Assembly: GCA_011364985.1 (NCBI GenBank)
Contig: RDOC01000003.1
Coordinates: 96,001-160,000, forward strand
From: Candidatus Thorarchaeota archaeon
Lineage (GTDB): Archaea > Asgardarchaeota > Thorarchaeia > Thorarchaeales > Thorarchaeaceae
Reading direction: 5' to 3'
DNA: 64,000 nt
Made by a program: the position numbers and the translations under genes. Below the pieces are notes generated by a model. It was not told the DNA's origin. It made no database searches and saw only the letters and a program-made list of their open reading frames with translations. Below are positions 42,729-56,680 of this stretch, one piece after another (position 1 is the first letter of the stretch; the number at the start of each line of letters is the position of its first letter).

Positions 42729-43475
42729 ATGAAGATTGCCAAACAGATTTTCAAGCAAGCTCTTGAAGAGGGAAGAACCTTTGTTCTTGAACATGAAGCG
42801 AAGGATATAATGAAGGCATATGGGTTACCAGTGCCAGCTTATGATACCGCAACAACAGCTGAAGCAGCAGCAGAGAAGGCCAAGAAGATTGGATTCCCAG
42901 TTGTACTGAAAATACTCTCGAAAGATATTCTTCACAAATCAGATGCCGGCGGCGTCAAAATCGACCTGAAGAGCGAGGAGGAGGTCAAGGAGGCCTTCTC
43001 AACCATAATGGATAACGCCAGAAAATATGGGAAGGAAAAGGGGATTGAGGTAGACCTTAGCAGAGGGGCATTCATCTCTGATTTTGCAGAAATGGGTACC
43101 GAAGTCATTGTTGGTGTTACAAAAGATCCTCAATTTGGACATGCATTGATGTTTGGACTTGGAGGGATATTTGTTGAGATCCTGAAGGATGTAACCTTCC
43201 GATTAATACCTCTCACCGAGATAGATGCTCGAGAGATGATTTCCGAAATAAAGGCTGCCAAGGTATTGGAGGGAGTGAGAGGACAACAGCCCCGCGACGT
43301 GGATGCCTTGGTTGAAATCATTATGGCTGTTTCAAAAATGGTATCGGAGAATCCTGAGATAAATGAGATTGACTGCAATCCCACGTTTCTTTACGAGAGA
43401 GGAAAAGGTGCCTTGGTGGTTGATGCCCGAATTCTAATCGAAAATCCGAATGAGAAGGCAGCATCTAGCCACTGA
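42729..43475 (+). CDS. acdB: ADP-forming acetyl/acyl-CoA synthetase beta subunit (ATP-grasp)
   Basis: LEHEAK, GFPVVLK..S.DI.HKSDAGGV, DPQFG, FGLGGIFVE, E.D.NP, VDARI. Confidence 0.93.
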   Translation: MKIAKQIFKQALEEGRTFVLEHEAKDIMKAYGLPVPAYDTATTAEAAAEKAKKIGFPVVLKILSKDILHKSDAGGVKIDLKSEEEVKEAFSTIMDNARKYGKEKGIEVDLSRGAFISDFAEMGTEVIVGVTKDPQFGHALMFGLGGIFVEILKDVTFRLIPLTEIDAREMISEIKAAKVLEGVRGQQPRDVDALVEIIMAVSKMVSENPEINEIDCNPTFLYERGKGALVVDARILIENPNEKAASSH

Positions 43476-44661
43476 TGAGATCGTGAAAGAGAACCAAGCT
43501 TCTCTTCAGATCCAAGTCTTGTAAACCTCTGTCACTTGATGCCTTTGTGACTCCAGCCAGTAAGAGCAATAATGCGACCATTCTGGGCACAAGCTTCGCA
43601 TTTTGTAGCAAGAACTCACGGTTCCTCGTAGAGTCCACGAGCAGACCCTCCAGCCGTCGCACAAGGAGAGAGAGCTTCTCATCCACACCAGCATCGAGCT
43701 GTATCTTTCGAAAGAGTGCATTTACTGTTGCTTCGTCCCGGAAATTCTCCTGTGATATGCCAATACTGTTCAATAGCCCCATGGACCCTAGAATAATCGA
43801 ATCGTAATCATCTTCCTCAATCCGTGAGAGTCCTTGCTCCAAGGCCTTGAGCTGAGCTAAAAACTTGAGAGAGTTCGTTAGGATATTTCTTGAAGCACTT
43901 GGCACGGAGAAGGCGATTTTCGCCAGACTTGCTTCATTCAGTCGCTCAAGCCGAGCAGCCACCGAAGACTCCAGTTTTCTCTCGAAGCCCGGGGAAAAGG
44001 CAATCTCTGCAAGCTTGGCAATCTTAGGGTCGGTGGAGATTCGACGGATGGCAGTCAGAGCCTTGAAATCATACAATGGAGTGTAGAAGAGAAGAATTCT
44101 AAGAATATCATAGGCTACCTCAAAATCGCTTTCAGTCGTCACACTACGACCTTGGCTCTTACAGGAAAATCCACTGATGAGAACCCAGCAGGACGCAAAC
44201 CGTTCGCATAATGCCTCGCACGATTTCGTATCGGTGAGTCCGTGATCCTCCAGAAATCGGGCCAGCTTCTCTGCAGCCCCAGCAATGCGTCCGGAAGTCT
44301 CACCCCCTATCTGAACTTGTGATAGAGATAGCATAAACTCTCTGGGGTCTCTTGAAGGAAGCCTAAGCCGAAATCCAGGATCCTCCCTGGTAATGGTCCA
44401 CCATTTGGAGGTAGATGTGAAGTGGTCTAGGATATCAACTGCACCTGTAAGATCGGATATACTAGAGGTGGTACGCCCGTCAAGTATGGTAATCGTTTTA
44501 CATATGGTTTCTAAGAAGTGTGAGAGGTGAATTATGAGCTTTTGACCTGCAAAGACTTGGTGCGAATACCGACCTATGACCGAATCGATATGTGATACAA
44601 TTTCAGTTGGAATTGATGCATCGATCAGTCCTCGATAAATCTCGATTGGGGTCCTTGTCAA
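43465..44661 (-). CDS. Hypothetical all-alpha protein with four ~100-aa AAA+-lid/histone-fold-like repeats
   Basis: Repeat ends GRTTSSISDLTGAVDIL, GRSVTTESDFEVAYDIL, GLSRIEEDDYDSII, DRGLQDLDLKRSLVLF; no P-loop. Confidence 0.6.
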   Translation of the reverse strand: MTRTPIEIYRGLIDASIPTEIVSHIDSVIGRYSHQVFAGQKLIIHLSHFLETICKTITILDGRTTSSISDLTGAVDILDHFTSTSKWWTITREDPGFRLRLPSRDPREFMLSLSQVQIGGETSGRIAGAAEKLARFLEDHGLTDTKSCEALCERFASCWVLISGFSCKSQGRSVTTESDFEVAYDILRILLFYTPLYDFKALTAIRRISTDPKIAKLAEIAFSPGFERKLESSVAARLERLNEASLAKIAFSVPSASRNILTNSLKFLAQLKALEQGLSRIEEDDYDSIILGSMGLLNSIGISQENFRDEATVNALFRKIQLDAGVDEKLSLLVRRLEGLLVDSTRNREFLLQNAKLVPRMVALLLLLAGVTKASSDRGLQDLDLKRSLVLFHDLISG

Positions 44662-44749: not shown

Positions 44750-45517
44750 TCATTGTCCGAAACGTCTTGACCGCTGCTGGTATGAACGCAGCGCTCTCCA
44801 AATATCGATTCTCCTCACAGCAGGCCAGTATATCTGTGCGAAATAGAGCTCGGAATAAGCTGATTGCCAAAGAAGAAATCCGGAAAGCCGCTCTTCACCT
44901 GAAGTACGTATTATAAGATCTGGGTCTGGAACTCCATTAGTATATAGATGACTCTCTATTACTTCTTCATTAATCTTATCAGGCTCAAGGTCTCCCGCTT
45001 GAATCTTCTGGCCAATAGCCCGGATTGCATCAACTAACTCAGCCCTACCAGAATAGCCAATGGCGACATTGAGAATGTGGTCCTTGTACCCCGTGGTTTC
45101 GTGCTGGGCCTGTACTATTGCGTCTTGGACTTCCTTAGGCAATAGGTCAACGCGGCCAATAGCTCTGATTCTTACTCTATGCCTATGAACATCTGGATTG
45201 CCAACGACCTCAGAGAATTTCTCCTTGGCTATGGCCATAATCTCCTCGACTTCATTCTTTTTCCGTTGGAAGTTCTCAATTGAGAAAGCATAGAGAGTGC
45301 ACACCTTAACGTTGGCCTCCCAGAGTATCTTCAAGACCTCCATGACTTTCTGGGCACCCTTATGATGACCAAACCAAGGAACATTCATGCCATGTTCTCT
45401 AGCGTAACGGCGGTTCCCATCAAGAATAATCCCAACATGACGCGGTGCGTGGTCCTTATCCAACTGACGGTGCAGAAAGTATTCGTACAGCCTATAGACG
45501 GGGCCAGCCAAGTTCAA
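44750..45517 (-). CDS. uppS: cis-prenyltransferase (polyprenyl diphosphate synthase)
   Basis: HVGIILDGNRR, YAFSIENF.R, DLIIRTSGE.RLSGFLLWQS.YSE, R.RRFG. Confidence 0.96.
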   Translation of the reverse strand: MNLAGPVYRLYEYFLHRQLDKDHAPRHVGIILDGNRRYAREHGMNVPWFGHHKGAQKVMEVLKILWEANVKVCTLYAFSIENFQRKKNEVEEIMAIAKEKFSEVVGNPDVHRHRVRIRAIGRVDLLPKEVQDAIVQAQHETTGYKDHILNVAIGYSGRAELVDAIRAIGQKIQAGDLEPDKINEEVIESHLYTNGVPDPDLIIRTSGEERLSGFLLWQSAYSELYFAQIYWPAVRRIDIWRALRSYQQRSRRFGQ

Positions 45518-45591: not shown

Positions 45592-45963
45592 CTATATCAT
45601 CTGAGACACCTTATCGGCAGCTCTCTTCATCTCAAGAAAGACCATTCCGAGCTTGGCACTTGCAGTTGTTGAAACCGTTAGGCAGGCATTCATTCCAGCT
45701 TGAACAACAAGCAGCCACCCGTCAACGCCCTTGATATTCACTTGCTCAAGATTCCCCTTTCCAAGCTCTATTGCGGCCTTTTCACCAAGCGTAAGCATTG
45801 CTGCAGTCATCGCAGCAACCTTAGCCTCATCAACATCCGTTGGCAAGGCAGATACAATGGGGAGCCCTTCAACACTCACTATTGCGCATGCCTCAATCTC
45901 AGGTATGCTACCCTGCAGCTCATTCAGCACGCTTTCCAATGTATCTCCGCGGCTCTCTGCCAT
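45592..45963 (-). CDS. Roadblock/LC7 (MglB-like) protein
   Basis: AIVS.EGLPI.S.LP..VDE..VAAM.AA.L.LGE....ELGKG.L, AKLG.V. Confidence 0.93.
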   Translation of the reverse strand: MAESRGDTLESVLNELQGSIPEIEACAIVSVEGLPIVSALPTDVDEAKVAAMTAAMLTLGEKAAIELGKGNLEQVNIKGVDGWLLVVQAGMNACLTVSTTASAKLGMVFLEMKRAADKVSQMI

Positions 45964-45983
45964 TAATTTCACCTAATTGATTA

Positions 45984-46547
45984 TCATTTGTACATCCTTT
46001 TCAGGATGACCTCTCGCGCTATTGCCTGAAAGGCTCTTTTAACTCCTACACCCTGAACAGCAATAGTCTCGTATATCGGAACATTTCCCCCCAGACCCAG
46101 TAGGTCAAGCATCTCATCCCGGGACATCCTGTTGGGTAGATCACGCTTGTTAAGCATGACGACAATCGGAATCTCACGTCCTAGAGCATCACCCAAAAAG
46201 AGCTTTAGCTCTTCGAAACTCTCAGTGTTCTCATCTCGCTGATCTGGCGAAGAGTCGGCAACAAAGAGAATTCCGTCTGTGCCTTGTAACACCACCTTTC
46301 TCTGGTGCCTGTGTCTCTTCTGTCCAGCTACTGTGAATACATCGAAGAGTACACGACCTCCTGCACTCATGGGAACATAATCAAAGAATAATGTGCGGTT
46401 AGTTTCATCTTCGATTGCAGTGAACTCTCCCTTTTGCAGACCCTCCACTTTTCCATAGAGCCACCTGAGAGCTGTGGTCTTACCGCCAAGGGATGGTCCG
46501 TAGAAGACAAGCTTGAGATGTATGCGACCTTGGACGTCCTTCCGCAC
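45984..46547 (-). CDS. MglA-family small GTPase
   Basis: G1 GPSLGGKTT, G2 RTLFFDY, G3 TVAGQ, G4 NKRD, G5 TIA. Confidence 0.93.
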   Translation of the reverse strand: MRKDVQGRIHLKLVFYGPSLGGKTTALRWLYGKVEGLQKGEFTAIEDETNRTLFFDYVPMSAGGRVLFDVFTVAGQKRHRHQRKVVLQGTDGILFVADSSPDQRDENTESFEELKLFLGDALGREIPIVVMLNKRDLPNRMSRDEMLDLLGLGGNVPIYETIAVQGVGVKRAFQAIAREVILKRMYK

Positions 46548-46875
46548 TATCTAGTCACCTCTATCGAATTTTCGCCCGCGAATGTTGGGTTTCTCTTCGT
46601 CACCGTCCGTTCACCTGATTTCCCCGAAAGAGGATGCTAGCACTGCTTCTAAGATCCGAGTTTGAATTCTAGGAAATTGAAGTCCAATAAAAGCCTTTGT
46701 GGCACGAGGAGGTTTCACGGGAAATCTTCATCATGAGCTTGACCCTTCAACTCAATATGAACTGCACAGTGGTGTTGCCAAGCGCAATACAACTGTGTGT
46801 GTTATGTTCGAAGTAGCATGCGCTCAAGTTTAAGCAAGATTGGCTTTTCGTGCTACAATGAACTCATGACTGTTA

Positions 46876-47757
46876 TTATACACTCTCTTTCTTGATGTTT
46901 CTTCTATGATAGACAAGAATCACGATCACTCCGAGCAGCGATAGTCCAATTTCGACCAAGGGCAATCGCAAACCATAGACTGCAACCCACTCATTTAGAT
47001 AGTAGCATCTGAAGTAACCAGAAAGATCAAACCCGTCACCAGACTCACTTCCGCTTATTTGGAAATGCGCCAGCGATTCGTTTCCCTTGTATAAGAGGAC
47101 TGGGAGGCGTTCTGATAAGAACTGGTAGTGCCATTCTCCTTGAATTGTCAGGTTCAGTGAATTAAGGAATGGTATTGTGAATGATACAATTGTGTGAGTC
47201 ATATTTTGGGTATCAGAATCATTGACTATGGTCATTAGGAATAAGACTCTTAGCGTATTATTGTCATAAGCCAAGAGGTCCACGTCCTTAGATAGAGAAC
47301 GAACCTGAATTGTTGATTCGTTGATTAGCATATTCTGAAGGCCATCCAGAATGTACACTTCCTTTGATAAATCGGAAGACGCGATTATCCACGATGTAAA
47401 GTTGAATCTAAATTCGTAACGGGCACCCGGGATTGTAGTATATTCCCGAAAGCCCTGTTTTGTCCCATCTAATAGATTTCTACCGAATGCAACCTGATGC
47501 AAGATGGTGAAACTTCTCATTTCAGTTATTCCTGAAAATGATTGATTCCCTGGTGATGTAATATTGGAACAAAGTGGGAATCCAAATTCATCTAATGGAG
47601 GATCTTGAAGGCGGCCGCCATTTCTGACCAATGCATCGACGGTACCTAGAGCCATTCTTTCGTGACTATAGTCAAAATCAATAGTATACACGCCAAGCAA
47701 CAAAATACCCAGCAAAATAACTACGGTCATCATGAGGATAATCTTGCTATGTTTCAC
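46876..47757 (-). CDS. Hypothetical exported protein with N- and C-terminal membrane anchors
   Basis: N-terminal hydrophobic helix, several N-x-S/T sequons, C-terminal TM plus basic tail; AT-richer than flanks. Confidence 0.65.
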   Translation of the reverse strand: MKHSKIILMMTVVILLGILLLGVYTIDFDYSHERMALGTVDALVRNGGRLQDPPLDEFGFPLCSNITSPGNQSFSGITEMRSFTILHQVAFGRNLLDGTKQGFREYTTIPGARYEFRFNFTSWIIASSDLSKEVYILDGLQNMLINESTIQVRSLSKDVDLLAYDNNTLRVLFLMTIVNDSDTQNMTHTIVSFTIPFLNSLNLTIQGEWHYQFLSERLPVLLYKGNESLAHFQISGSESGDGFDLSGYFRCYYLNEWVAVYGLRLPLVEIGLSLLGVIVILVYHRRNIKKESV

Positions 47758-47825
47758 TTTGTTTCTCCATCAAGAAAAAAGAGAGAAAGGAGATGTAAAT
47801 ACATACCCTACTCAGAGTTTGTCAT

Positions 47826-48300
47826 CCATCTAGAGTGAAGTACTTCCCTTCTGAGACTAAGATAAAATCTATGTGTTTAGGATTATATTGGATTGTCTTG
47901 AAATGCAAGAACATGCTTTCTCTAAGAAGCAATTCAGCATAGGAATCGTCTGAGTGTTCTAGTAAGTTCAAAATATCTCCACTTAGACTGTGCTATGCAG
48001 ATGTTAGAACTAGATTCATGACATCAAATTCAGGTGATTTCTTGGTGTCAATGCCTATGTAATCCAGTTTATGATTGGCCGTCCATCTTAGACGAATATT
48101 CACATTATTTGTTCATCTGGAACTAAATCAATGAGATTATCCGGAGTTAGATTTCTACTAGCCCAACTGATTCTTGGAATAATCACACCAACCTCTTGAT
48201 ATCTGGAGTCAGTAAGAAGACCGACATATATCGAGAATTTCGTGCCTGCATCTGCCCTAAAAACCAGTTTAGCACCATCTGTAGGAGTTCGGGTTCTGAA
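47826..48300 (-). pseudogene. Remnant of an archaeal extracellular-protein C-terminal domain
   Basis: Own translation: AKLVFRAD..K.SI.V...IIPR..WA / frameshift near 48108 / IRLRWTANHKLDYIGIDT...SA*HS.SGD...D..YAEL...F.L..EG.Y. Confidence 0.65.
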
Positions 48301-48429
48301 AGAACAATATAGAACATCGCCAGCAACCCTCTCGAAACATAGACCATCCTCTCTCTGCAGGAGATGGATTACAGAGGCGCCAGATTCCGAAACAGCTGAT
48401 TCTGCAGCCTCTGTGTATTATGTTTGAAA

Positions 48430-48900
48430 TCACACTCGCTCAAGCTCTGCCAAAGCAGACTTGAGATCCTCTTCGTCAAGTTCCTTATCTTTTCCTCCAG
48501 GGGCAATTGGTTCGACTGCAAGGAACTTGTCGAGTTCATCAGCAAGTTGTACACCCTGCTTCTTCATAACAAGACGAATCAAGCCAATGTTGACTTCTGC
48601 CTCAGATACGACGCAGAGTACGCCTTTGCCACAGGCCGATGCGAAAATTTTGCCCTCGCTGAACTCCGATGTGACAATCTCCAATTCTCCAATTTGGAGG
48701 TTCACACCCTGTTCTTCGCTGGCGCAGAATACAGCACTAGCAATCGCACCAATTGAGTCTACGTCGACAGGGTAGTAAGAGAGCTTACTCACATTGGCAA
48801 TTGTTAGTCCTGTCTTGTCAACCAGAATTACTTTCTTGATCCCCTTGTCCTGCCTGATGATCTCAGTCAGGATCTTATCGAAAGCTTTTGGATCGCTCAT
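48430..48900 (-). CDS. Roadblock/LC7 protein with acidic C-terminal helical extension
   Basis: VILVDKTGL.IA, IGAIASAVF.ASE.QG..L..G.L, VNIGLIRL; tail ELDEEDLKSALAELE. Confidence 0.88.
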   Translation of the reverse strand: MSDPKAFDKILTEIIRQDKGIKKVILVDKTGLTIANVSKLSYYPVDVDSIGAIASAVFCASEEQGVNLQIGELEIVTSEFSEGKIFASACGKGVLCVVSEAEVNIGLIRLVMKKQGVQLADELDKFLAVEPIAPGGKDKELDEEDLKSALAELERV

Positions 48901-48917
48901 TCCACTATATCCCCATA

Positions 48918-49214
48918 CTAATTCTTCTTGAGGACCACTAATATCAGGCCCTCCTTTTCATCAGGTGCGATGTTTATTTGTCCGTGTGTTGTGTCCAACG
49001 TGAGGAAGGACAGCGACCCCTCGCGAAGAAGGCGCACCGCATCCAGTGCTTTTCCCACGAGAGAGGTGATGATTGCAGCGATGTTTTCGGTTGTGTCAGA
49101 GTCAAGATCACTGCTTAGCGGCAGTCCTTCCATGGTAGTAATCACTACTCCTCGGACGCCGTCCTGTGCCTTTAGCTTTGACAGGACTTTCTGTAGTTTT
49201 TCTTGACTTATCAA
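48918..49214 (-). CDS. Short Roadblock/LC7 protein (lacks the final helix)
   Basis: L.KL....GVRGVVI.T.EGLPL.S.L......IAA....L...A, L.FL.L.T, LILVVLK. Confidence 0.9.
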   Translation of the reverse strand: MISQEKLQKVLSKLKAQDGVRGVVITTMEGLPLSSDLDSDTTENIAAIITSLVGKALDAVRLLREGSLSFLTLDTTHGQINIAPDEKEGLILVVLKKN

Positions 49215-49314
49215 CCTACGGTGCTCCGCTGTATCATTTGGGCACTTGCCAAATTCCTACGCCGCAGTTGGGTATTTTAGGATTACCGTGATATTGGTTA
49301 GGCAGCTGAGCCCG

Positions 49315-49336
49315 TTTGCGCAAAAGATTGCGCAAT
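49315..49336. promoter_or_regulatory. Tandem palindromes, candidate operator upstream of the Roadblock pair
   Basis: TTTGCGCAAA-AG-ATTGCGCAAT: two perfect 10-bp palindromes sharing a TTGCGCAA core. Confidence 0.45.
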
Positions 49337-49381
49337 TTTGCCAACAACGGTGTTACCCTAGTAATATATCAATGATAAGCT

Positions 49382-49424
49382 AAAAGAAAGAGAGATGAGT
49401 GACGCATCTAAGCGTCACTGCATC
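49382..49424 (-). terminator. Hairpin plus pyrimidine tract after the Sec23/24-like gene
   Basis: AGTGACGC-6nt-GCGTCACT stem, followed on the minus strand by CTCTCTTTCTTTT. Confidence 0.55.
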
Positions 49425-49430
49425 ATTGGA

Positions 49431-51062
49431 TTACGCTTTGTCCTCGTCTTCAAATATCTTCTTTGAACTTCTCTTCATCTGAGCAAGGTTTTCCACGGCA
49501 GACATGTCAGCTGCTGCAGAGGGGGCTGCTCCACCTGCAGGAGCTTCTCTCATGCGTTCTTCTTGACGCACGAGCTCCTCCTCTTCCGCAGCCAATACGT
49601 TGTCTGCCTTTTCAAGCATCTGCTGAACAGGCGCTGGAGCTGCTCGGGCTCGAGCCTTCATAGCTGATCTAAAGGCAGAGAGACGCTTCTTGCCTTTTTC
49701 TCTGTCACCCCTAACGGCATCTTCACCAGCCTTCTGAGTAACAAAGGTAGCACCCACTGTGGGGTCAAGGGATTTCATAATCTCCTCTTCCTTGTCTGAA
49801 ACCCGAAGCCTTGTTGTGACCGCACGAACCCTTCGCGCACCATCGTTGTCGGTATAGGCAACTTGAACTTGGATGGGAATCTCCTGATCATTGATCTTGG
49901 CAGAGGGCTCTACCTCAAAGTAGAGCTCATGATCCTCTCCAACGACCCCGATTTTGCCCCCACTCTTTTTCTTGAGTTCATCAAGAACCACACGAGAGGC
50001 TCCAGATGCGTCCTTCACCTTAACGCCCGCAGGAGTTACGAGCTTGACTTCTACATCACGACCTAGCATTGCAGACCCCGCTAGTTCTGAAAGACTTCGA
50101 TCGAGCTCATTTGGTGTGACATAGTACATTGTCCCACCCGTTATCTCGGGCATGAGACCAAGGGTCTTCAATTCCATTCCACCACCGGAAGCGATACCAA
50201 CGACATCGACAGCTGTTCCAAGGTCCAAGAACCTCCTTCCAATATTCTCGTAGAATTTGGAACCAGGCGTGACCTGATAACCCTCAAGCGCACCGATGCC
50301 CTCGTTGGCAAGGCCGTCGGTAAGCAGAACCACACGTCCAACATTACGATGTTTCGATATAGTACTGGCCATTGCAACAGCAGGTCCGAGGGCTGTGCCG
50401 CCTTGGTCGCGTAGTGCACGAACATGGTTCTTTAGCTTGTCAGCATTCTTTCCAACGTGAACAAGCCGTATCTTGTCCAATAGATTCTTTGTTGCTTCAT
50501 CAATGTCCTTGAGACTCATGAATGAACTTGTCGGCAATTCAACTGGATGACCGGTTTCTAAATCTCGTGCAACAACTGTGCTCTCGAACTCGATCAGACC
50601 GAACATGGTATCGGGAGCATTTACTGCTAGGCTATCTATCGAAGTTGTAAGGCTTCTCTTAACAGCTGAAAGATTCTCCCCAGCCATCGAGCCGGAAACA
50701 TCGATTAGAGCCAAAAATGATCTACCACCAGCAGAAACTTCACCTATGGCAGTCTTCGTCGCTTCAGGTGGTAGCTCGATGACGAAGTCAGTTTCATCCC
50801 CCGCAGCAACGACTTCGCCTTCAATAACATTCAGAGTTCCACAAAATGGACAAAGAAAATGTCGTCCGACTTTCGGATCATCCCTGATCTGATCCGTGCT
50901 AATTAGAAAGCCATTGCATTTGTGGCAGGCAATAGGCTTCCCGACGATTTTGGTCGTTTCGCGTGCTAGCTCTCCAAACTCAATACGGAGAACATAAGGG
51001 ATGTCACTCATGACGCCTTTAGAGGCTGGAAAAGTCTTTGAGCTGGTTCTTAGTAAAGGCAT
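49431..51062 (-). CDS. Sec23/Sec24-like protein: Zn finger + vWA trunk + beta-sandwich + helical tail
   Basis: CHKC...CPFCGTLN Zn finger; vWA IDVSGSM, GGTALGPA, LLTDGLAN.G.G; Q.Q..YT..DG.RR.R..T beta-sandwich. Confidence 0.82.
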   Translation of the reverse strand: MPLLRTSSKTFPASKGVMSDIPYVLRIEFGELARETTKIVGKPIACHKCNGFLISTDQIRDDPKVGRHFLCPFCGTLNVIEGEVVAAGDETDFVIELPPEATKTAIGEVSAGGRSFLALIDVSGSMAGENLSAVKRSLTTSIDSLAVNAPDTMFGLIEFESTVVARDLETGHPVELPTSSFMSLKDIDEATKNLLDKIRLVHVGKNADKLKNHVRALRDQGGTALGPAVAMASTISKHRNVGRVVLLTDGLANEGIGALEGYQVTPGSKFYENIGRRFLDLGTAVDVVGIASGGGMELKTLGLMPEITGGTMYYVTPNELDRSLSELAGSAMLGRDVEVKLVTPAGVKVKDASGASRVVLDELKKKSGGKIGVVGEDHELYFEVEPSAKINDQEIPIQVQVAYTDNDGARRVRAVTTRLRVSDKEEEIMKSLDPTVGATFVTQKAGEDAVRGDREKGKKRLSAFRSAMKARARAAPAPVQQMLEKADNVLAAEEEELVRQEERMREAPAGGAAPSAAADMSAVENLAQMKRSSKKIFEDEDKA

Positions 51063-51256
51063 GTAAAATCGACCTCAGAAGTTGTTTCATAATCGACAAT
51101 TGTGGTTTTAAGGGTTCGTCGGAACTATCAGCATGAAATCGAATACAGGAGACTCTATTCTTGGCAGCTAATCAATGACCAACACAGAAAATATAAGCGC
51201 ATCATCTGCCAGAACAGAGTAGATGAAATACTCCCACCCACGGAGGAAATGTTGAG

Positions 51257-51622
51257 ATGGTGGATAAAGGCAAGATTGAACAAGTAGTAGCAGACACGAT
51301 GGCAGCAAACGAGAACCTTGAAGGAATTGTTGTATGTAATGCAAAGGGCGAGGTGCTATTTGGACACACCATAGCCGCAGGCGTTAAACACACTGACGTT
51401 GCATCACTGGCTGTCAAAATTGCTGCGAACTCATCTCAGCTGGCGGGTGGCTTGGATAAAGGAGGACTCAAGGAAGTATCAATCGCAGCGGACAACGGCT
51501 TTATCGTTGTATTGGGCGATGTCAGAATAGTCCTAGCAGGTATAGCAGGAGAAGGAGCGCGTGAGTCTATGGGGCTTATTCGAATGGCTCTGAAGCGCGC
51601 CTTATTGAAGATGCTTGAATGA
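51257..51622 (+). CDS. Roadblock/LC7-fold protein (divergent)
   Basis: LEGIVVCN..G.VL, L.KGGL.EV.I....GFIVV, MGLIRMALKR. Confidence 0.8.
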   Translation: MVDKGKIEQVVADTMAANENLEGIVVCNAKGEVLFGHTIAAGVKHTDVASLAVKIAANSSQLAGGLDKGGLKEVSIAADNGFIVVLGDVRIVLAGIAGEGARESMGLIRMALKRALLKMLE

Positions 51623-51815
51623 TGCATAGTGCTTCCAGCAACCGCAGAGCTACCTTTTTTTGGTGATATTTAGCTCAAGTAAATGCATACACTAATACCT
51701 GAATGATGTCTGGGTACTACCTAGGTAGTACCAACCGTATTAGGGATTGTGTATTATTTCCGAAATGGACAGGCCAGAGTATAGTATCGGAAGGAAAGTC
51801 GGAAGGGATTGCATC

Positions 51816-54800
51816 TTGGTCCATATTGACAAGCTCGTATGCAAGGGTTTCAAGTCATTTGGCCGAGAAACTGTTACTATCAATTTCAGTCCAGGATTTA
51901 CTTGCATTGTAGGCCCTAACGGATCAGGAAAGTCCAATGTCATCGATGCGATCCTTTTTGTTCTTGGGCAGCTAAGCGCCAAGACTCTTCGAGCAAATGT
52001 CTTCTCGGACCTTCTCTATTCTCCACCGAAACCAAATATGCCGCCGAAGGCAAGATCTGCACTAGTAGAGCTTCACTTTGATAATAGAGACCGAAAGCTG
52101 CAGATTGAAGCAGACCGAGTTGTAATTGAGAGAGAGCTTGATGATACTGGGAAATCTACCTGCAGAATAAACGGGAAGGTGGTTACGCGATCCTCAGTTC
52201 TTGAAGTACTAGGAGCCATAGGTGTCGATCCCAATGGATATAATCTTGTTCTTCAAGGAGAGATAGCACAGATTGTAAAGGTAAGCCCAATTGATCGTCG
52301 AAAGCTGATTGAAGAGATTGCAGGAATATCTGCCTACGATGAGCAAAAAGAGCGTGCTCTGAAGAAGCTTGCTGAGAGCGAATCAAATCTGGGCAAGGTA
52401 GAGATGCAACTTCAAGAAAGACGAAGGCAACTGGAAAAATTGGAAGAGGAACGTTCTGATGCCTTTCGTCACAAAAGCATCACAGAGAAGATCAAAGCTA
52501 TCTCAGCCGATAGCTATGCTTGGAGGATAGTAAAGTGCCGGAACCGAATCGAAACGATACATGAAACCCTTGCAGAAAGAGCCGAAGAAGCTGAGAAGCT
52601 GGAACGTGAACATGCAGAAGCTGAAAAGAAAGCAAAACAAACTGAAGAGCAAATCGATGCGATTGACACGGAGATTGATGGGATTACTGGTGGAGCATCA
52701 GCAAGAATTTCTGAACAATACGGAGTTGTTTCGGCGGCTGTTGACCATTTAAGAAGGGATTTGGAGAGAACAAGAATCGAGCTAGAGAATCTAACCGAAG
52801 AGAAGAGCTCTGTTCAGGTCGAAATGCAATCCATCAAGGACCAAGTTGAGGGCTCACTGGCGCTAACAGACGAAAAGGAACAAGAGCTTTCAAGGCTCAA
52901 TAATGAAATAGCCGAGTGCTCTAGAAAAGTAACTAGTTTAGAGGAGCATATTGAGAAAGAACAAGAGAGCATACTCGAAGCAACACAACGTTTGCAGGAC
53001 CTCAATAACCAGATGAGGATGCTTGACGAAGGTGTTTCTGAAGTGCGTTCGGCCATCAAAAGCGATAGCAAGGAGCTAGGAATGGCCTACGAGGAGCTTC
53101 AGGACTCCAAGAATCTCCTTGAAAGGACAGAAGATGAACTTGTGGAACTAAGAAGAATCATACCAGTCAAGCGCGAGGAACTGCAAAAATCGGAAGAGGA
53201 TGAGTCTGTTAAAAGAGTGAAAGTAGATGAACTTGAAAAGCGATTAAGGACCATTGATGAGGAGGAGCGAGAAGCAGGAAAGATTGTAAAAGCCACGCGG
53301 GAAGAGCTTATTCGAATTCAAGCAAGGCAAGATGCATTAAAGGATGCAGAAGAGGCATTTCTCAAGAAAAAACATGCCTTGGCACGTGTGCTTGAACTCC
53401 GTGATTCCAACACTATTTCCGGGATATATGGTACTGTTGCTGAACTTGGAGTGATCAATCCGGAATATGCCACCGCTATGGAGGTCGCAGGCGGCAACCG
53501 CCTTTCATATATCGTCGTGGAAAGCGATCATGCAGCCAGTGAATGCATTGATATTCTAAAGAGAGAGAGGGTGGGCCGTGCATCCTTCATTCCACTGAAT
53601 AAAATAAGAACAAAACAGTCAGGCAAGCTTCCTAGCGATAAGGGAGTGATTGGTTTTGCAATTGACTTAGTGAGTTTTGAACCGAAGATGAAGCCTGCTT
53701 TCGATTTCGTCTTTTCGGACACTATTGTCACTGAGAACTTCGAAACTGCGAAAAGGCTTGGTTTCAAAGGTATGAGAGCGGTTTCTCTGGAAGGAGACCT
53801 TGTTGAGAAATCAGGATTGATAACAGGGGGACATTATCATCGTACATCCGTAGGACTCTCTCTGCAGGAGAAGGACATTAGTCCACAGATTGCGGAGCGT
53901 TTGAAGGGTCTGGAAAAGGTACACAATGGGCTATTGGACCAACAAGAAGAACTGAGAAAGCAGAAGAGCATTTTTGATCATGAGATTCAAGATCTGTCAA
54001 AGACCAACTATAGAGCACAGCTGGAACTCGACGGGCTTGACGAACGCTTGAAAGAGAAGGAGAATCGGTCTGCAGTTCTGAAGGAGCGAATAGCAACAGC
54101 TGAAGTCACGATAGAGGCCTTGGAGAAGCAAATTGGTGAGCTAACAGAACGAGATAATGAACTATCGCAGCACCGGGAGATGGTGAGAGAACAAAGAGAT
54201 GATGTCAATGAGCAGCTGGCCAAGTCTGATACTGCCAAGCTTACTCAGTACATGAAAGACTTGAAGGAAGTAATGGAACGGCACAAACAGGAGCGCGAGG
54301 CCTTGATGAGCGAGATTACTTCCCTCAAGGTGGCCCTAGACGAAAGGCTGAAGCCGAAGCTGATGGAACTTGATTTGCGCCATCAATCCTTAGCCAAGGC
54401 AACTCCTGATCTAGAGATCAAAGTAAAGGAACTCAAAGATGAACTTGCCGAGAAAGAGGAAGAGTTCCTCAAGCTTAAGGCGGAACGTGATCAGATTGAT
54501 GAAGCCGTTAAGGACAAACGAGTTCTTCAGCTTGAACTGAAAGAGAAGCTTCGTAATTTCAGGCTGCGCCATGAGGAAATTCGAGAGGAACAGACAGCCA
54601 ATGAGAAAGCTGTATACCGGCTTCAGACTGAACAGTCACGCTTAGAAACGGATATCGTTGGTTTTGTGGCCGAACTCAATGAGATATCCCGCGCTGATGA
54701 GGAGGTTGCAAAGAGAACAACTCTAAGAGAGATTACATACAAGGAAATTGATGATTTTGAGGACAAAATCAAGGAACTGGAGAGGGAGCTGGAGGCATTA

Positions 54801-55406
54801 GGTCCTGTTAACCTAAAAGCCCTTACAGACTATGATCTTGAGAAAGACAAGTACGAAGAGATTGTTGATAAAAAGACCAAACTGGAGGAAGAGCATAAAG
54901 AAATCCTTGCCTTCATGGAAGAAATCGAAGCTGAGAAGACACGTAAGTTTCTGCAGGTCTATAATGAGATTGCAGACAATTTTGCGTCAGTGTTCTCCAA
55001 GCTCTCACCGGATGGAGAAGCCACGCTCATGCTTGAGAATCCAGAACATCCCTTAATGGGAGGGATTACTGTAAAATCAAAGCCTCGAGGAAAGGAACTC
55101 GTCACATTGGACGCAATGAGTGGTGGAGAGAAGACCATCACGGGACTTGCGCTGATTTTCGCCATCCAGATGTACAATCCTGCGAGCTTCTATATCTTTG
55201 ATGAGATAGACGCGGCTCTAGATGATGTAAATGCACATAATGTGGCGCTCTTAATAGCAGAGATGTCAAAGTCTTCCCAATTCGTGATTGTATCATTGAG
55301 AGACACAACTGTCAGCAAGGCTGACTTGTTGATAGGAGTATCAAATCAGGACGGCATCTCAAGAATCGTCAAAGTTGACCTTGAGGAGGTGGGCTCTGCA
55401 GCATGA
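51816..55406 (+). CDS. smc: Chromosome segregation protein SMC
   Basis: GFKSF, GPNGSGKSN, Q-loop, coiled coils, hinge GD....SG..TGG, MSGGEK, DEIDAALD; TTG start 51816. Confidence 0.97.
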   Translation: MVHIDKLVCKGFKSFGRETVTINFSPGFTCIVGPNGSGKSNVIDAILFVLGQLSAKTLRANVFSDLLYSPPKPNMPPKARSALVELHFDNRDRKLQIEADRVVIERELDDTGKSTCRINGKVVTRSSVLEVLGAIGVDPNGYNLVLQGEIAQIVKVSPIDRRKLIEEIAGISAYDEQKERALKKLAESESNLGKVEMQLQERRRQLEKLEEERSDAFRHKSITEKIKAISADSYAWRIVKCRNRIETIHETLAERAEEAEKLEREHAEAEKKAKQTEEQIDAIDTEIDGITGGASARISEQYGVVSAAVDHLRRDLERTRIELENLTEEKSSVQVEMQSIKDQVEGSLALTDEKEQELSRLNNEIAECSRKVTSLEEHIEKEQESILEATQRLQDLNNQMRMLDEGVSEVRSAIKSDSKELGMAYEELQDSKNLLERTEDELVELRRIIPVKREELQKSEEDESVKRVKVDELEKRLRTIDEEEREAGKIVKATREELIRIQARQDALKDAEEAFLKKKHALARVLELRDSNTISGIYGTVAELGVINPEYATAMEVAGGNRLSYIVVESDHAASECIDILKRERVGRASFIPLNKIRTKQSGKLPSDKGVIGFAIDLVSFEPKMKPAFDFVFSDTIVTENFETAKRLGFKGMRAVSLEGDLVEKSGLITGGHYHRTSVGLSLQEKDISPQIAERLKGLEKVHNGLLDQQEELRKQKSIFDHEIQDLSKTNYRAQLELDGLDERLKEKENRSAVLKERIATAEVTIEALEKQIGELTERDNELSQHREMVREQRDDVNEQLAKSDTAKLTQYMKDLKEVMERHKQEREALMSEITSLKVALDERLKPKLMELDLRHQSLAKATPDLEIKVKELKDELAEKEEEFLKLKAERDQIDEAVKDKRVLQLELKEKLRNFRLRHEEIREEQTANEKAVYRLQTEQSRLETDIVGFVAELNEISRADEEVAKRTTLREITYKEIDDFEDKIKELERELEALGPVNLKALTDYDLEKDKYEEIVDKKTKLEEEHKEILAFMEEIEAEKTRKFLQVYNEIADNFASVFSKLSPDGEATLMLENPEHPLMGGITVKSKPRGKELVTLDAMSGGEKTITGLALIFAIQMYNPASFYIFDEIDAALDDVNAHNVALLIAEMSKSSQFVIVSLRDTTVSKADLLIGVSNQDGISRIVKVDLEEVGSAA

Positions 55407-56110
55407 GTAATGATTTGCCATTCTGGGCCGCCCCACCGTATATACTCCTGACCGATGTCCTTCAGCTTGACAAAGTTAAACCATGGAACGTTGACGTGGG
55501 AAAGCTTGTTGCAGGCTTCCTCAGAGAGATGAGGAGAATTGGCGATATAGACTTCCGTGTATCAGGAAGTGCTCTTTATTCCGCGTCTGTGATCTTCATG
55601 AGAAAGACGCGTGAACTTGTGGAACTTGGTTTATTGTCTCCTGATGAGGATGATGAGGAAGAGGACCTTATCATTCCCTTAATACGACCTCCATTTAGGG
55701 TTTCTAATCAACGCGTCACATTAGAAGAGCTTCTTGTTGCTATGGACCGCGTTTTGAGCAAAGGTGTTCGTCAACGCTCAAGTCCTTCAAAGACTAGAAG
55801 ATATAGCACTAGGGCCGACCCCTTGGCCTTCAAAATGGAGAGCACGCGTGCAGATGTGGAGGAGAATATCGCAGAAGTCTATGATGACCTCTGCAAGGTG
55901 ATGAAGATAGGAGACGAATCCAGATTCGTAGATCTTCTTATGAACAACTCAAGAAGAGAGATTGTCAGAATGTTCTTTGCAATTCTACATCTCTTTGCCC
56001 GAACATTCATTGACATTTGGATGGATGACGAGGAAGTCATCTGGGTGAAGCTGTTGGAACCTCCTGTTGAGGAAGAGGAGGAAACAATACAGTCAGCTGT
56101 TGACGGGTAG
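55403..56110 (+). CDS. scpA: Kleisin ScpA
   Basis: PWNVDV..L...FL, DFRVSG.AL..AS.....K, VTLEEL..A, F.A.LHL; overlaps smc stop. Confidence 0.9.
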   Translation: MSNDLPFWAAPPYILLTDVLQLDKVKPWNVDVGKLVAGFLREMRRIGDIDFRVSGSALYSASVIFMRKTRELVELGLLSPDEDDEEEDLIIPLIRPPFRVSNQRVTLEELLVAMDRVLSKGVRQRSSPSKTRRYSTRADPLAFKMESTRADVEENIAEVYDDLCKVMKIGDESRFVDLLMNNSRREIVRMFFAILHLFARTFIDIWMDDEEVIWVKLLEPPVEEEEETIQSAVDG

Positions 56111-56680
56111 ATGGTTGAGGTGAATGAGGATCTGGTCAAACTGGAAGCGGCACTATATGTTGCAGGCCGTCCTGTCACTCTGGAAGAATTGTCGAACATA
56201 ATAGATAAGGCTGAATCCACCACGAGGAAGCTTCTTGAGAATCTTGGATTTGAGTATAGACAGCGAGAAGGCGCCTTGGAAGTGGTAGAACTTCCCAGAG
56301 AGAGATACGTACTACAGCTGAAGCCAGAACTGACACCAGGTGTTGCGAAGCTGATTCCAGGAGGCCTGCTTTCTTTTGCCACGCTCCAGACACTGGTATA
56401 CATTGCCCTAAAACAGCCAATCCTTCAGTCGGAACTCGTTGCTGAACGAGGAACGCATTGTTATGACCATATCAAAGAACTGATTGAGAAGAAGTTTGTT
56501 GATGCCGTTCCTGAGGGGCGAAGCAGGATTTTGACAACAACAGATCTCTTTGCAGACTACTTTGGACTAGACCCAGATAGAGTGCGGCTTAAGGCCCAAC
56601 TCAAATTCAAAATGAAACGTATACTCTCAGAACAACAGGAGCTTGAAGACCAAGCTGCTGCAGAGGAGTTTCTGAGATAA
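56111..56680 (+). CDS. scpB: SMC-Scp complex subunit ScpB (Kite)
   Basis: LEAALYVAG.PV....L, LQTL..IA..QPI.QS.L...RG...Y.HIKEL, TT..FADYFG. Confidence 0.95.
   Translation: MVEVNEDLVKLEAALYVAGRPVTLEELSNIIDKAESTTRKLLENLGFEYRQREGALEVVELPRERYVLQLKPELTPGVAKLIPGGLLSFATLQTLVYIALKQPILQSELVAERGTHCYDHIKELIEKKFVDAVPEGRSRILTTTDLFADYFGLDPDRVRLKAQLKFKMKRILSEQQELEDQAAAEEFLR

Follow-up and report, generated by a model that had tools for sequence, protein, structure and literature searches.

A conserved MglA GTPase with four Roadblock proteins in Asgard archaea and its Sec23/24-like neighbor in one Thorarchaeota family

We analyzed a 64,000-nucleotide stretch (the window) of a Candidatus Thorarchaeota contig (RDOC01000003.1, positions 96,001 to 160,000; assembly GCA_011364985.1, 1.70 Mb, 74% complete, whose relatives also carry the name Candidatus Thorarchaeota), in which 6 kb hold genes for an MglA-type small GTPase, four Roadblock proteins (RB1 to RB4), and a Sec23/24-like protein with a zinc finger and a von Willebrand factor A (vWA) domain (Table 1). 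The GTPase and the four Roadblocks turned out to be a conserved unit, older and more widespread than an earlier note on this DNA had supposed, and constitute a multi-Roadblock variant of the MglA-MglB switch. The locus is probably best explained as such an old Asgard switch joined by a separately transcribed adaptor, the Sec23/24-like protein, which moved in and is not a required part. The earlier note had taken all six genes for one system, a view that did not survive the comparison of genomes, since the Sec23/24-like gene lies in the cluster in one family only and is elsewhere absent or unlinked; for the same reason its position is no sign of a primitive vesicle coat. The Sec23/24-like protein itself is already known, while no description of the MglA-four-Roadblock block, of the gene cluster, or of the neighborhood of the Asgard Sec23-like gene was found in the literature searched, whose coverage did not extend to subscription papers.

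The GTPase and the four Roadblocks

All six genes are present as open reading frames with the coordinates and strands given in the earlier note, and five are co-oriented, only RB4 being on the plus strand. Judged by its sequence, the GTPase is an MglA and not a Sar1 or Arf. Its best solved relatives are the MglA proteins of Myxococcus and Thermus (E values of 4e-38 to 1e-37, versus 5e-12 for Arf and 2e-7 for Sar1), and it has a P-loop, an NKxD motif, and TxxGQ in place of DxxGQ. R51, T52, and Q76, which correspond to catalytic residues of MglA, are invariant among 29 Asgard MglA proteins, R51 and Q76 aligning with R53 and Q82 of MglA. The protein has no C-terminal cysteine and lacks the N-terminal amphipathic helix of Sar1/Arf, because just eight mostly polar residues (hydrophobic moment, 0.20) precede the first strand; in Sar1, the N-terminal membrane helix starts the assembly of coat protein complex II (COPII) (PMC7594496). 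Nor is it a Rag GTPase with a C-terminal Roadblock domain, as it is 187 amino acids (aa) long and PF04670 matches with an E value of just 0.042. MglA itself supplies the arginine for catalysis, and its activator is a dimer of Roadblocks (PMC13408092); a GTPase-activating protein (GAP) of the Sec23 type is unneeded. Across the genera of the Thorarchaeota family of the source genome (here, the host family; f2 is its sister family, and other f-numbers denote further Asgard families) the mean identity of MglA was 96% (SMC, 64%), and relatives with 55-67% identity occur through much of the Asgard phylum.

RB1 to RB4 each represent a separate orthologous family, with pairwise identities of about 25-33% over the aligned parts. 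The assembly has eight Roadblock-domain genes, and the clustering of four of them within these 6 kb is beyond chance. The RB1 profile matched Thorarchaeota and MK-D1 Roadblocks, CvnB5, and MglB (E value, 3e-6); RB1 resembles Asgard and actinobacterial Roadblocks and has a mean identity of 87% across the host family. The proposal that RB1 is the cognate Roadblock of MglA held with regard to adjacency, but it is not clearly the sole cognate, RB2 being by sequence an equal or better MglB candidate. In most genomes RB2 is the gene immediately upstream of mglA. Among proteins of solved structure, its profile matches MglB of Myxococcus xanthus best, and its nearest non-archaeal Atlas cluster is MglB, which is matched by both RB1 and RB2 at about 30 bits. 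It was found in 297 of the 400 Asgard genomes, mostly as a single copy, with a mean identity of 90% in the host family, and its C-terminal amphipathic helix (residues 143-155, after a flexible linker) is conserved in the aligned lineages. In MglB, the C-terminal (Ct) helix holds MglA-GDP and favors exchange (PMC13408092), and the helix of RB2 may, by analogy, be its equivalent; an AlphaFold3 model of one Thorarchaeota pair, which may or may not have included RB2, did not predict Ct-helix binding (PMC13408092).

With respect to the solved Asgard Roadblocks (7F8F, 7F8M, 7YH1, 9JUE, and 9JQ8; PMC10933270), RB3 belongs to the family of Odin RBLC7 (PDB 7F8F; E value, 1.5e-39), and RB4, confirmed as a Roadblock by profile search, best matches PDB 9JQ8 (E value, 6e-22). 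RB3, 81% identical on average across the host family, has the dynein light chain roadblock as its nearest eukaryotic relative (E value, 1e-23), far closer than LAMTOR5 (E value, 0.04). RB4 is ancestrally head-to-head with RB3, upstream of smc-scpA-scpB. The Thorarchaeota Roadblock 7F8M is matched far better by a paralogue elsewhere in the genome (C17:72783-73145) than by RB1.

The MglA-MglB polarity switch of M. xanthus and Thermus thermophilus, with the accessory Roadblocks MglC and RomY (PMC13408092, PMC9481161), shares with the present block the intrinsic arginine, TxxGQ, a Roadblock gene directly upstream, extra Roadblocks, and, in RB2, a basic last helix and a tethered C-terminal helix. 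It differs in that here four Roadblock families, one of them short and LC7-type, surround one GTPase, and in that the Asgard cluster has no RomR/RomX or motility genes; its function as a switch in archaea is putative. The pairing of Asgard small GTPases with regulators has been called hard, since the genes are usually unlinked, and the GTPases of MK-D1 are generally not in operons with Roadblocks (PMC10933270); in this locus, in contrast, the pairing is shown by gene order. The block offers four candidate regulators of a single, highly conserved GTPase, making a six-protein reconstitution possible, and connects both RB3, the Asgard relative of the dynein light chain, and RB2, which is MglB-like and has a C-terminal helix, with one switch.

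We have established the gene order, conservation, MglA catalytic residues, and folds of this switch of one MglA and four orthologous Roadblock families, which would be encoded in three transcription units (mglA-RB1, RB3-RB2, and the divergent RB4). If Myxococcus is a guide, RB1 and/or RB2 would form a dimer that binds MglA-GTP across its small-residue alpha2 helices and positions R51 of MglA, so acting as a GAP. The tethered helix of RB2 could hold MglA-GDP and promote exchange or, alternatively, fill the empty helix groove of the short RB3, and RB3 and RB4 may be accessory subunits comparable to MglC and RomY. The switch would probably serve to mark a cellular location, in polarity or site selection, and not to build a coat.

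Alternatively, the Roadblocks could form a Ragulator- or dynein light chain-like hetero-oligomeric scaffold with MglA as one client among others, which we consider somewhat unlikely. Consistent with a scaffold, RB2 and RB3 match MAPKK1_Int (LAMTOR3) and LAMTOR5, respectively, at or above the Pfam cut-offs, the fold of RB2 matches LAMTOR2 as well as it does MglB, RB3 is close to the dynein light chain, and in three records (L254-L256) the RB4, RB3, RB2, RB1, and UppS genes are found together with no mglA between RB2 and RB1. The parallel with Ragulator, drawn in the earlier note, is a loose one, as Ragulator has two long and two short Roadblocks and here there are three long ones and a single short one, nearest to the dynein light chain. 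The cluster contains neither a LAMTOR1-type tether nor a Rag GTPase, the solved Asgard Roadblocks are homodimers (PMC10933270), and at least one Roadblock stays beside mglA in most lineages. Orthology of RB2 and RB3 to LAMTOR3 and LAMTOR5 was not accepted, as the profile scores favor MglB and the dynein light chain.

RB2 is split by short out-of-frame insertions in three relatives (L246:6087-6113, L104:10642-10674, and L115:10618-10642). The split falls at codon 29 in one genome, a Thorarchaeote, and around codons 46-48 in the other two, one a Freyarchaeia genome and one from f12. Bulge-helix-bulge-like pairing is possible for the L104 insert, and the inserts are candidate archaeal introns of a protein gene.

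Gene order across Asgard families and transcription signals

In the host family, the rule is the order Sec23/24-like, RB3, RB2, MglA, RB1, and UppS, with RB4-SMC-ScpA-ScpB divergent from it. Elsewhere, no gene separates the head-to-head pair RB3 and RB4 in f2 (where 188 bp lie between the two starts), Freyarchaeia, Baldrarchaeota, f4, f8, and f12; reduced forms of the block occur in f7, f13, f16, f22, f5, and f14, and its genes are dispersed in f9 and f24. The Sec23/24-like family was found in 145 of the 400 Asgard genomes. Its profile gave no match in several families in which all the sampled genomes have RB2, namely f22 (0/22), f7 (0/5), f15 (0/4), f3 (0/4), f13 (0/3), and f21 (0/3), and where the block and the Sec23/24-like gene both occur outside the host family they are unlinked, being, e.g., 860 kb apart (measured from the MglA locus) on a complete Freyarchaeia chromosome. 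On complete f24 and f9 chromosomes (G288, G225, G293, and G323) the RB2, RB3, and MglA-like genes lie at widely separated sites. There, the match to the RB2 profile ends at about position 133-136, short of the C-terminal helix, and that to MglA is weaker.

Within the host family, the Sec23/24-like gene was lost twice while the MglA-Roadblock block stayed: only residues 512-541 remain at the site in G018 (96% complete) and only residues 1-39 in G027 (98% complete). In G019, the gene is elsewhere in the genome. The MglA of all three is still 91-96% identical. In the tree, the host-family copies of the Sec23/24-like protein form one clade (support, 100/100) with an unlinked f2 copy as its sister (98/97), in keeping with entry of the gene between RB3 and RB4 at, or close to, the base of the family. 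The mean identity of the protein in the host family, 64.5%, is at the level of SMC, and unrelated flanking genes (those for acetate-CoA ligase, UppS, and SMC-ScpAB) are about as syntenic there. The synteny of the six genes was confirmed within the host family, where, because these unrelated genes are about equally stable, it passes on its face alone; outside it the expectation failed, the block persisting without the Sec23/24-like gene. We propose that this gene, encoding a vertically inherited adaptor with a MIDAS (metal ion-dependent adhesion site), would have moved into the gap and then stayed there as the neighboring housekeeping genes did.

The Sec23/24-like gene also looks, from its flanking signals, like a separate transcription unit. 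The hairpin and U-rich tract at its 3' end have a z score of -4.2, and a hairpin with a T tract is found in many relatives. A TGCGCA palindrome followed by a TATA-like site is present upstream of RB3 in 38 of the 39 host-family sequences, and the palindrome is kept also in genomes without the Sec23/24-like gene there. The TATA-like sites of the Sec23/24-like gene and RB4 have similar counterparts at similar distances in relatives; these sites and the element upstream of mglA are putative promoters, and RB1 is probably on the same transcript as mglA, as judged from the DNA. The gap between RB2 and mglA has taken insertions of 1-4 kb several times. The gene's own hairpin, the RB3 motif, the mglA element, and the gap insertions together argue that the co-orientation of the genes probably does not reflect one transcript. 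The promoter assignments are based on conservation, a sigma-70 scan, ill-suited to archaea, having come out at chance level; from three metatranscriptomes of the same study just one short divergent contig was recovered for the locus.

The palindrome WTGCGCAW occurs upstream of 13 of the 1,572 called genes, 4 of which encode a Roadblock or small GTPase (about 0.2 expected): RB3, a divergent Roadblock/Rab pair, and another Roadblock (C17:17128, C17:73236). It may possibly mark a regulon of GTPase-Roadblock genes.

The Sec23/24-like protein

The Sec23/24-like protein shares 74% identity with a protein of Ca. Thorarchaeota SMTZ1-45 annotated as "SEC24 family transport protein," whose gene sits in the same cluster (L202). 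It has the zinc finger, vWA trunk, and beta-sandwich in the order typical of Sec23/Sec24 (Sec23_BS and zf-Sec23_Sec24 being under the Pfam cut-offs), and its predicted structure (mean predicted local distance difference test score, 83) matches Sec23/24 over the whole chain (template modeling score by query, 0.63-0.71). As to the all-helical domain, the model has helices after residue 425 and the alignment with Sec24 extends to position 470, with no match to PF04815. No gelsolin domain was found by Pfam or in the predicted structure, which ends in helices at residue 543, and the sole gelsolin gene of the assembly is on another contig. The protein is no different from the Asgard "Sec23-like" proteins described previously, with the same four domains and no gelsolin domain; all Asgard copies lack both the residues that contact Sar1 and this domain, on which the GAP residue of Sec23 lies, and no nucleotide-dependent binding of an Asgard Sec23-like protein to an Asgard Arf was observed (PMC11914678). 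The MIDAS is intact, with all five positions (D121, S123, S125, T223, and D249) invariant, and its completeness departs from the Sec23/Sec24 trunk, yeast Sec24 lacking the last aspartate in the alignment. The gene is single copy in the 74% complete assembly and in nearly all relatives.

These properties bear directly on a reading of the six genes as a proto-COPII module, with the Sec23/24-like protein as coat subunit and as GAP of the GTPase. COPII (Sar1-Sec23-Sec24) shares with it the fold of four of the five Sec23/24 domains, and the whole-chain match and the co-orientation of five of the six genes are in keeping with such a module. The protein has, however, no gelsolin/GAP domain, a single paralogue, an intact MIDAS, and a profile nearer to Sec24, the non-GAP subunit, than to Sec23, while the GTPase is an MglA with its own arginine and no membrane helix. 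With the GAP domain missing and the linkage patchy, this reading is largely refuted, and we regard it as very improbable. That the protein is the effector of the clustered GTPase, as put forward in the earlier note, or its GAP is not supported, given the domain content, the kind of GTPase, a linkage confined to one family, signs of a separate transcription unit, and the presence of remnants alone in two 96-98% complete genomes. A search for outer-coat families gave no match anywhere, controls included. The gene should not be cited as proto-COPII on the basis of its position.

Sulfolobus ArnA-ArnB (PDB 8S05; PMC12852372) also shares the vWA-beta-sandwich-helical core and MIDAS, plus a zinc finger, although this is on a separate FHA protein and the pair, a phosphorylation-controlled regulator of motility, is much more distant; the likeness indicates that the core serves non-coat regulators in archaea too. 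Among eukaryotic proteins, the Sec23/24-like profile scored Sec24 at 59 bits and Sec23 at 21 bits, and those of the cpRAS-VWA type, with a zinc finger and vWA domain, reached about 150-216 bits; the cpRAS-VWA profile itself scores Sec24 at 59. By similarity, the closest eukaryotic counterpart is thus this neglected family, where closest means the highest profile score, canonical Sec23/24 having been left out of the tree. About a fifth of the eukaryotic-type matches carry an N-terminal circularly permuted Ras domain (PMC2430557). cpRAS-VWA (CPRas1; PMC2430557) shares the zinc finger, the vWA domain with intact MIDAS, the beta-sandwich, the short helical end, and the lack of gelsolin; together with relatives lacking cpRAS it supplies the highest-scoring eukaryotic matches, and one Atlas cluster is common to eukaryotes and Thorarchaeota. 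The Thorarchaeota protein differs in having no fused GTPase domain, and its neighbor GTPase is MglA, not Ras. On sequence grounds, the likeness may stem either from common descent or from slow evolution on both sides. In the tree, the proteins with the cpRAS fusion group as a single clade inside the eukaryotic family, the Asgard and eukaryotic proteins being in separate clades; the fusion is therefore probably a later eukaryotic event. A search for longer fused forms (983-2,805 aa) gave two unrelated vWA proteins, which is weak evidence.

Several observations weigh against treating the Sec23/24-like protein as a dispensable newcomer to the switch. Its gene is directly upstream of RB3 and co-oriented with it in 35 of the 38 host-family genomes, and in genus g6 it remained with RB3-RB2-MglA when RB4-SMC departed. 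RB4, with a mean identity of 66%, diverges as fast as the Sec23/24-like gene, so rate alone cannot split members from non-members. The nearest eukaryotic relatives of the protein include small-GTPase fusions. Of the 24 independent contexts outside the host family, 3 have the gene immediately after, and co-oriented with, one for a small GTPase or Roadblock; the partners are a Rab-like GTPase in f9 g24, a different MglA-related GTPase in f9 g31, and a Roadblock in f31. The two f9 GTPase genes (L153:8294-8965 and L149:7821-8348) are unrelated and in different genera, with gaps of 126 bp and about 780 bp; among adjacent genes, GTPases or Roadblocks made up 3 of 45, versus 3 of 234 among other nearby genes (Fisher P = 0.055).

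On these grounds, the Sec23/24-like protein could be a real but optional effector of the MglA-Roadblock switch, with selection behind its arrival in the cluster. It would then be recruited to a membrane site by MglA-GTP or by a dimer of Roadblocks, and its MIDAS would bind an acidic residue on a target; the prokaryotic system would parallel cpRAS-VWA and not Sar1-Sec23. The adjacency in the host family, the three further independent ones, and the Ras domain of eukaryotic relatives all speak for it; the partner, however, changes with each lineage and is missing from 21 of the 24 outside contexts, the cpRAS fusion is confined to its single clade, the gene has promoter-like and terminator-like signals of its own, and it was lost twice with MglA unchanged. 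We consider an optional effector unlikely, and a GTPase-linked adaptor role for the protein is, in our estimate, likewise improbable. Complex prediction of residues 15-535 with MglA, RB2, and RB3 (RB1, RB4, and GTP not included) scored 0.00 and gave no answer, which counts neither for nor against binding. More doubtful still is the bolder proposal that this gelsolin-less MIDAS protein is a small-GTPase-linked adaptor that repeatedly settled beside GTPase or Roadblock genes and was recruited in Thorarchaeota by an MglA switch of four hetero-oligomeric Roadblocks, with RB2 as the MglB-like and RB3 as the dynein light chain-like member; if true, GTPase-adaptor coupling would be older than COPII and would have here a prokaryotic counterpart of the eukaryotic cpRAS-VWA fusion.

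Other features of the locus

The features of the locus are collected in Table 1. The gene for a 293-aa protein, co-oriented and located between MglA and RB2, was passed over by the earlier note. Its product has a basic tail, and no family was found for it in Pfam or a further family search. We rejected it as a member of the module, as nearly all relatives are without it at this position; one other genome has a partial relative there, and the gap in which it sits often takes insertions.

Table 1. Features of the MglA-Roadblock locus (positions in the window)
Feature	Position	Strand	Description
398-aa protein	43465-44661		no Pfam match
UppS	44750-45517		cis-prenyltransferase, downstream of RB1
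RB1	45592-45972	-	full-length Roadblock, MglB/CvnB-like; Pfam PF03259 Robl_LC7, E value 2.6e-16
RB1 start	probable ATG at 45963	-	RB1 11 bases downstream of mglA
mglA	45984-46547	-	MglA-type small GTPase, 187 aa, intrinsic R51 and Q76
Promoter-like element of mglA	46687-46703	-	GCCACAAAGGCTTTTAT; upstream of mglA in several genera
293-aa gene	46876-47757	-	lineage-specific insertion; product probably membrane-anchored, with a hydrophobic segment at each end
RB2	48430-48900	-	Roadblock with flexible linker and acidic amphipathic C-terminal helix; Pfam E value 4.3e-9
RB3	48918-49214	-	short LC7-type Roadblock without last helix; Pfam E value 5.8e-16
Promoter-like region of RB3-RB2	49271-49335	-	two TTGCGCAA palindromes (49316-49323, 49328-49335), TATA-like site 49271-49280
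Terminator-like hairpin and U-rich tract	49398-49419	-	just past the stop codon of the Sec23/24-like gene
Sec23/24-like gene	49431-51062	-	zinc finger-vWA-beta-sandwich-helical; Pfam Sec23_trunk, E value 1.1e-12
Divergent TATA-like sites	51104-51198		51104-51112 (-) for the Sec23/24-like gene; 51183-51198 (+) for RB4
RB4	51257-51622	+	divergent full-length Roadblock; Robl_LC7 E value 0.0025, below cut-off
smc-scpA-scpB	51747-56680		downstream of RB4

The 398-aa protein is kept after UppS throughout the host family (mean identity, 46%) and is conserved weakly in f2. The flanking of the block by UppS and smc-scpA-scpB is kept in several distant Asgard families.

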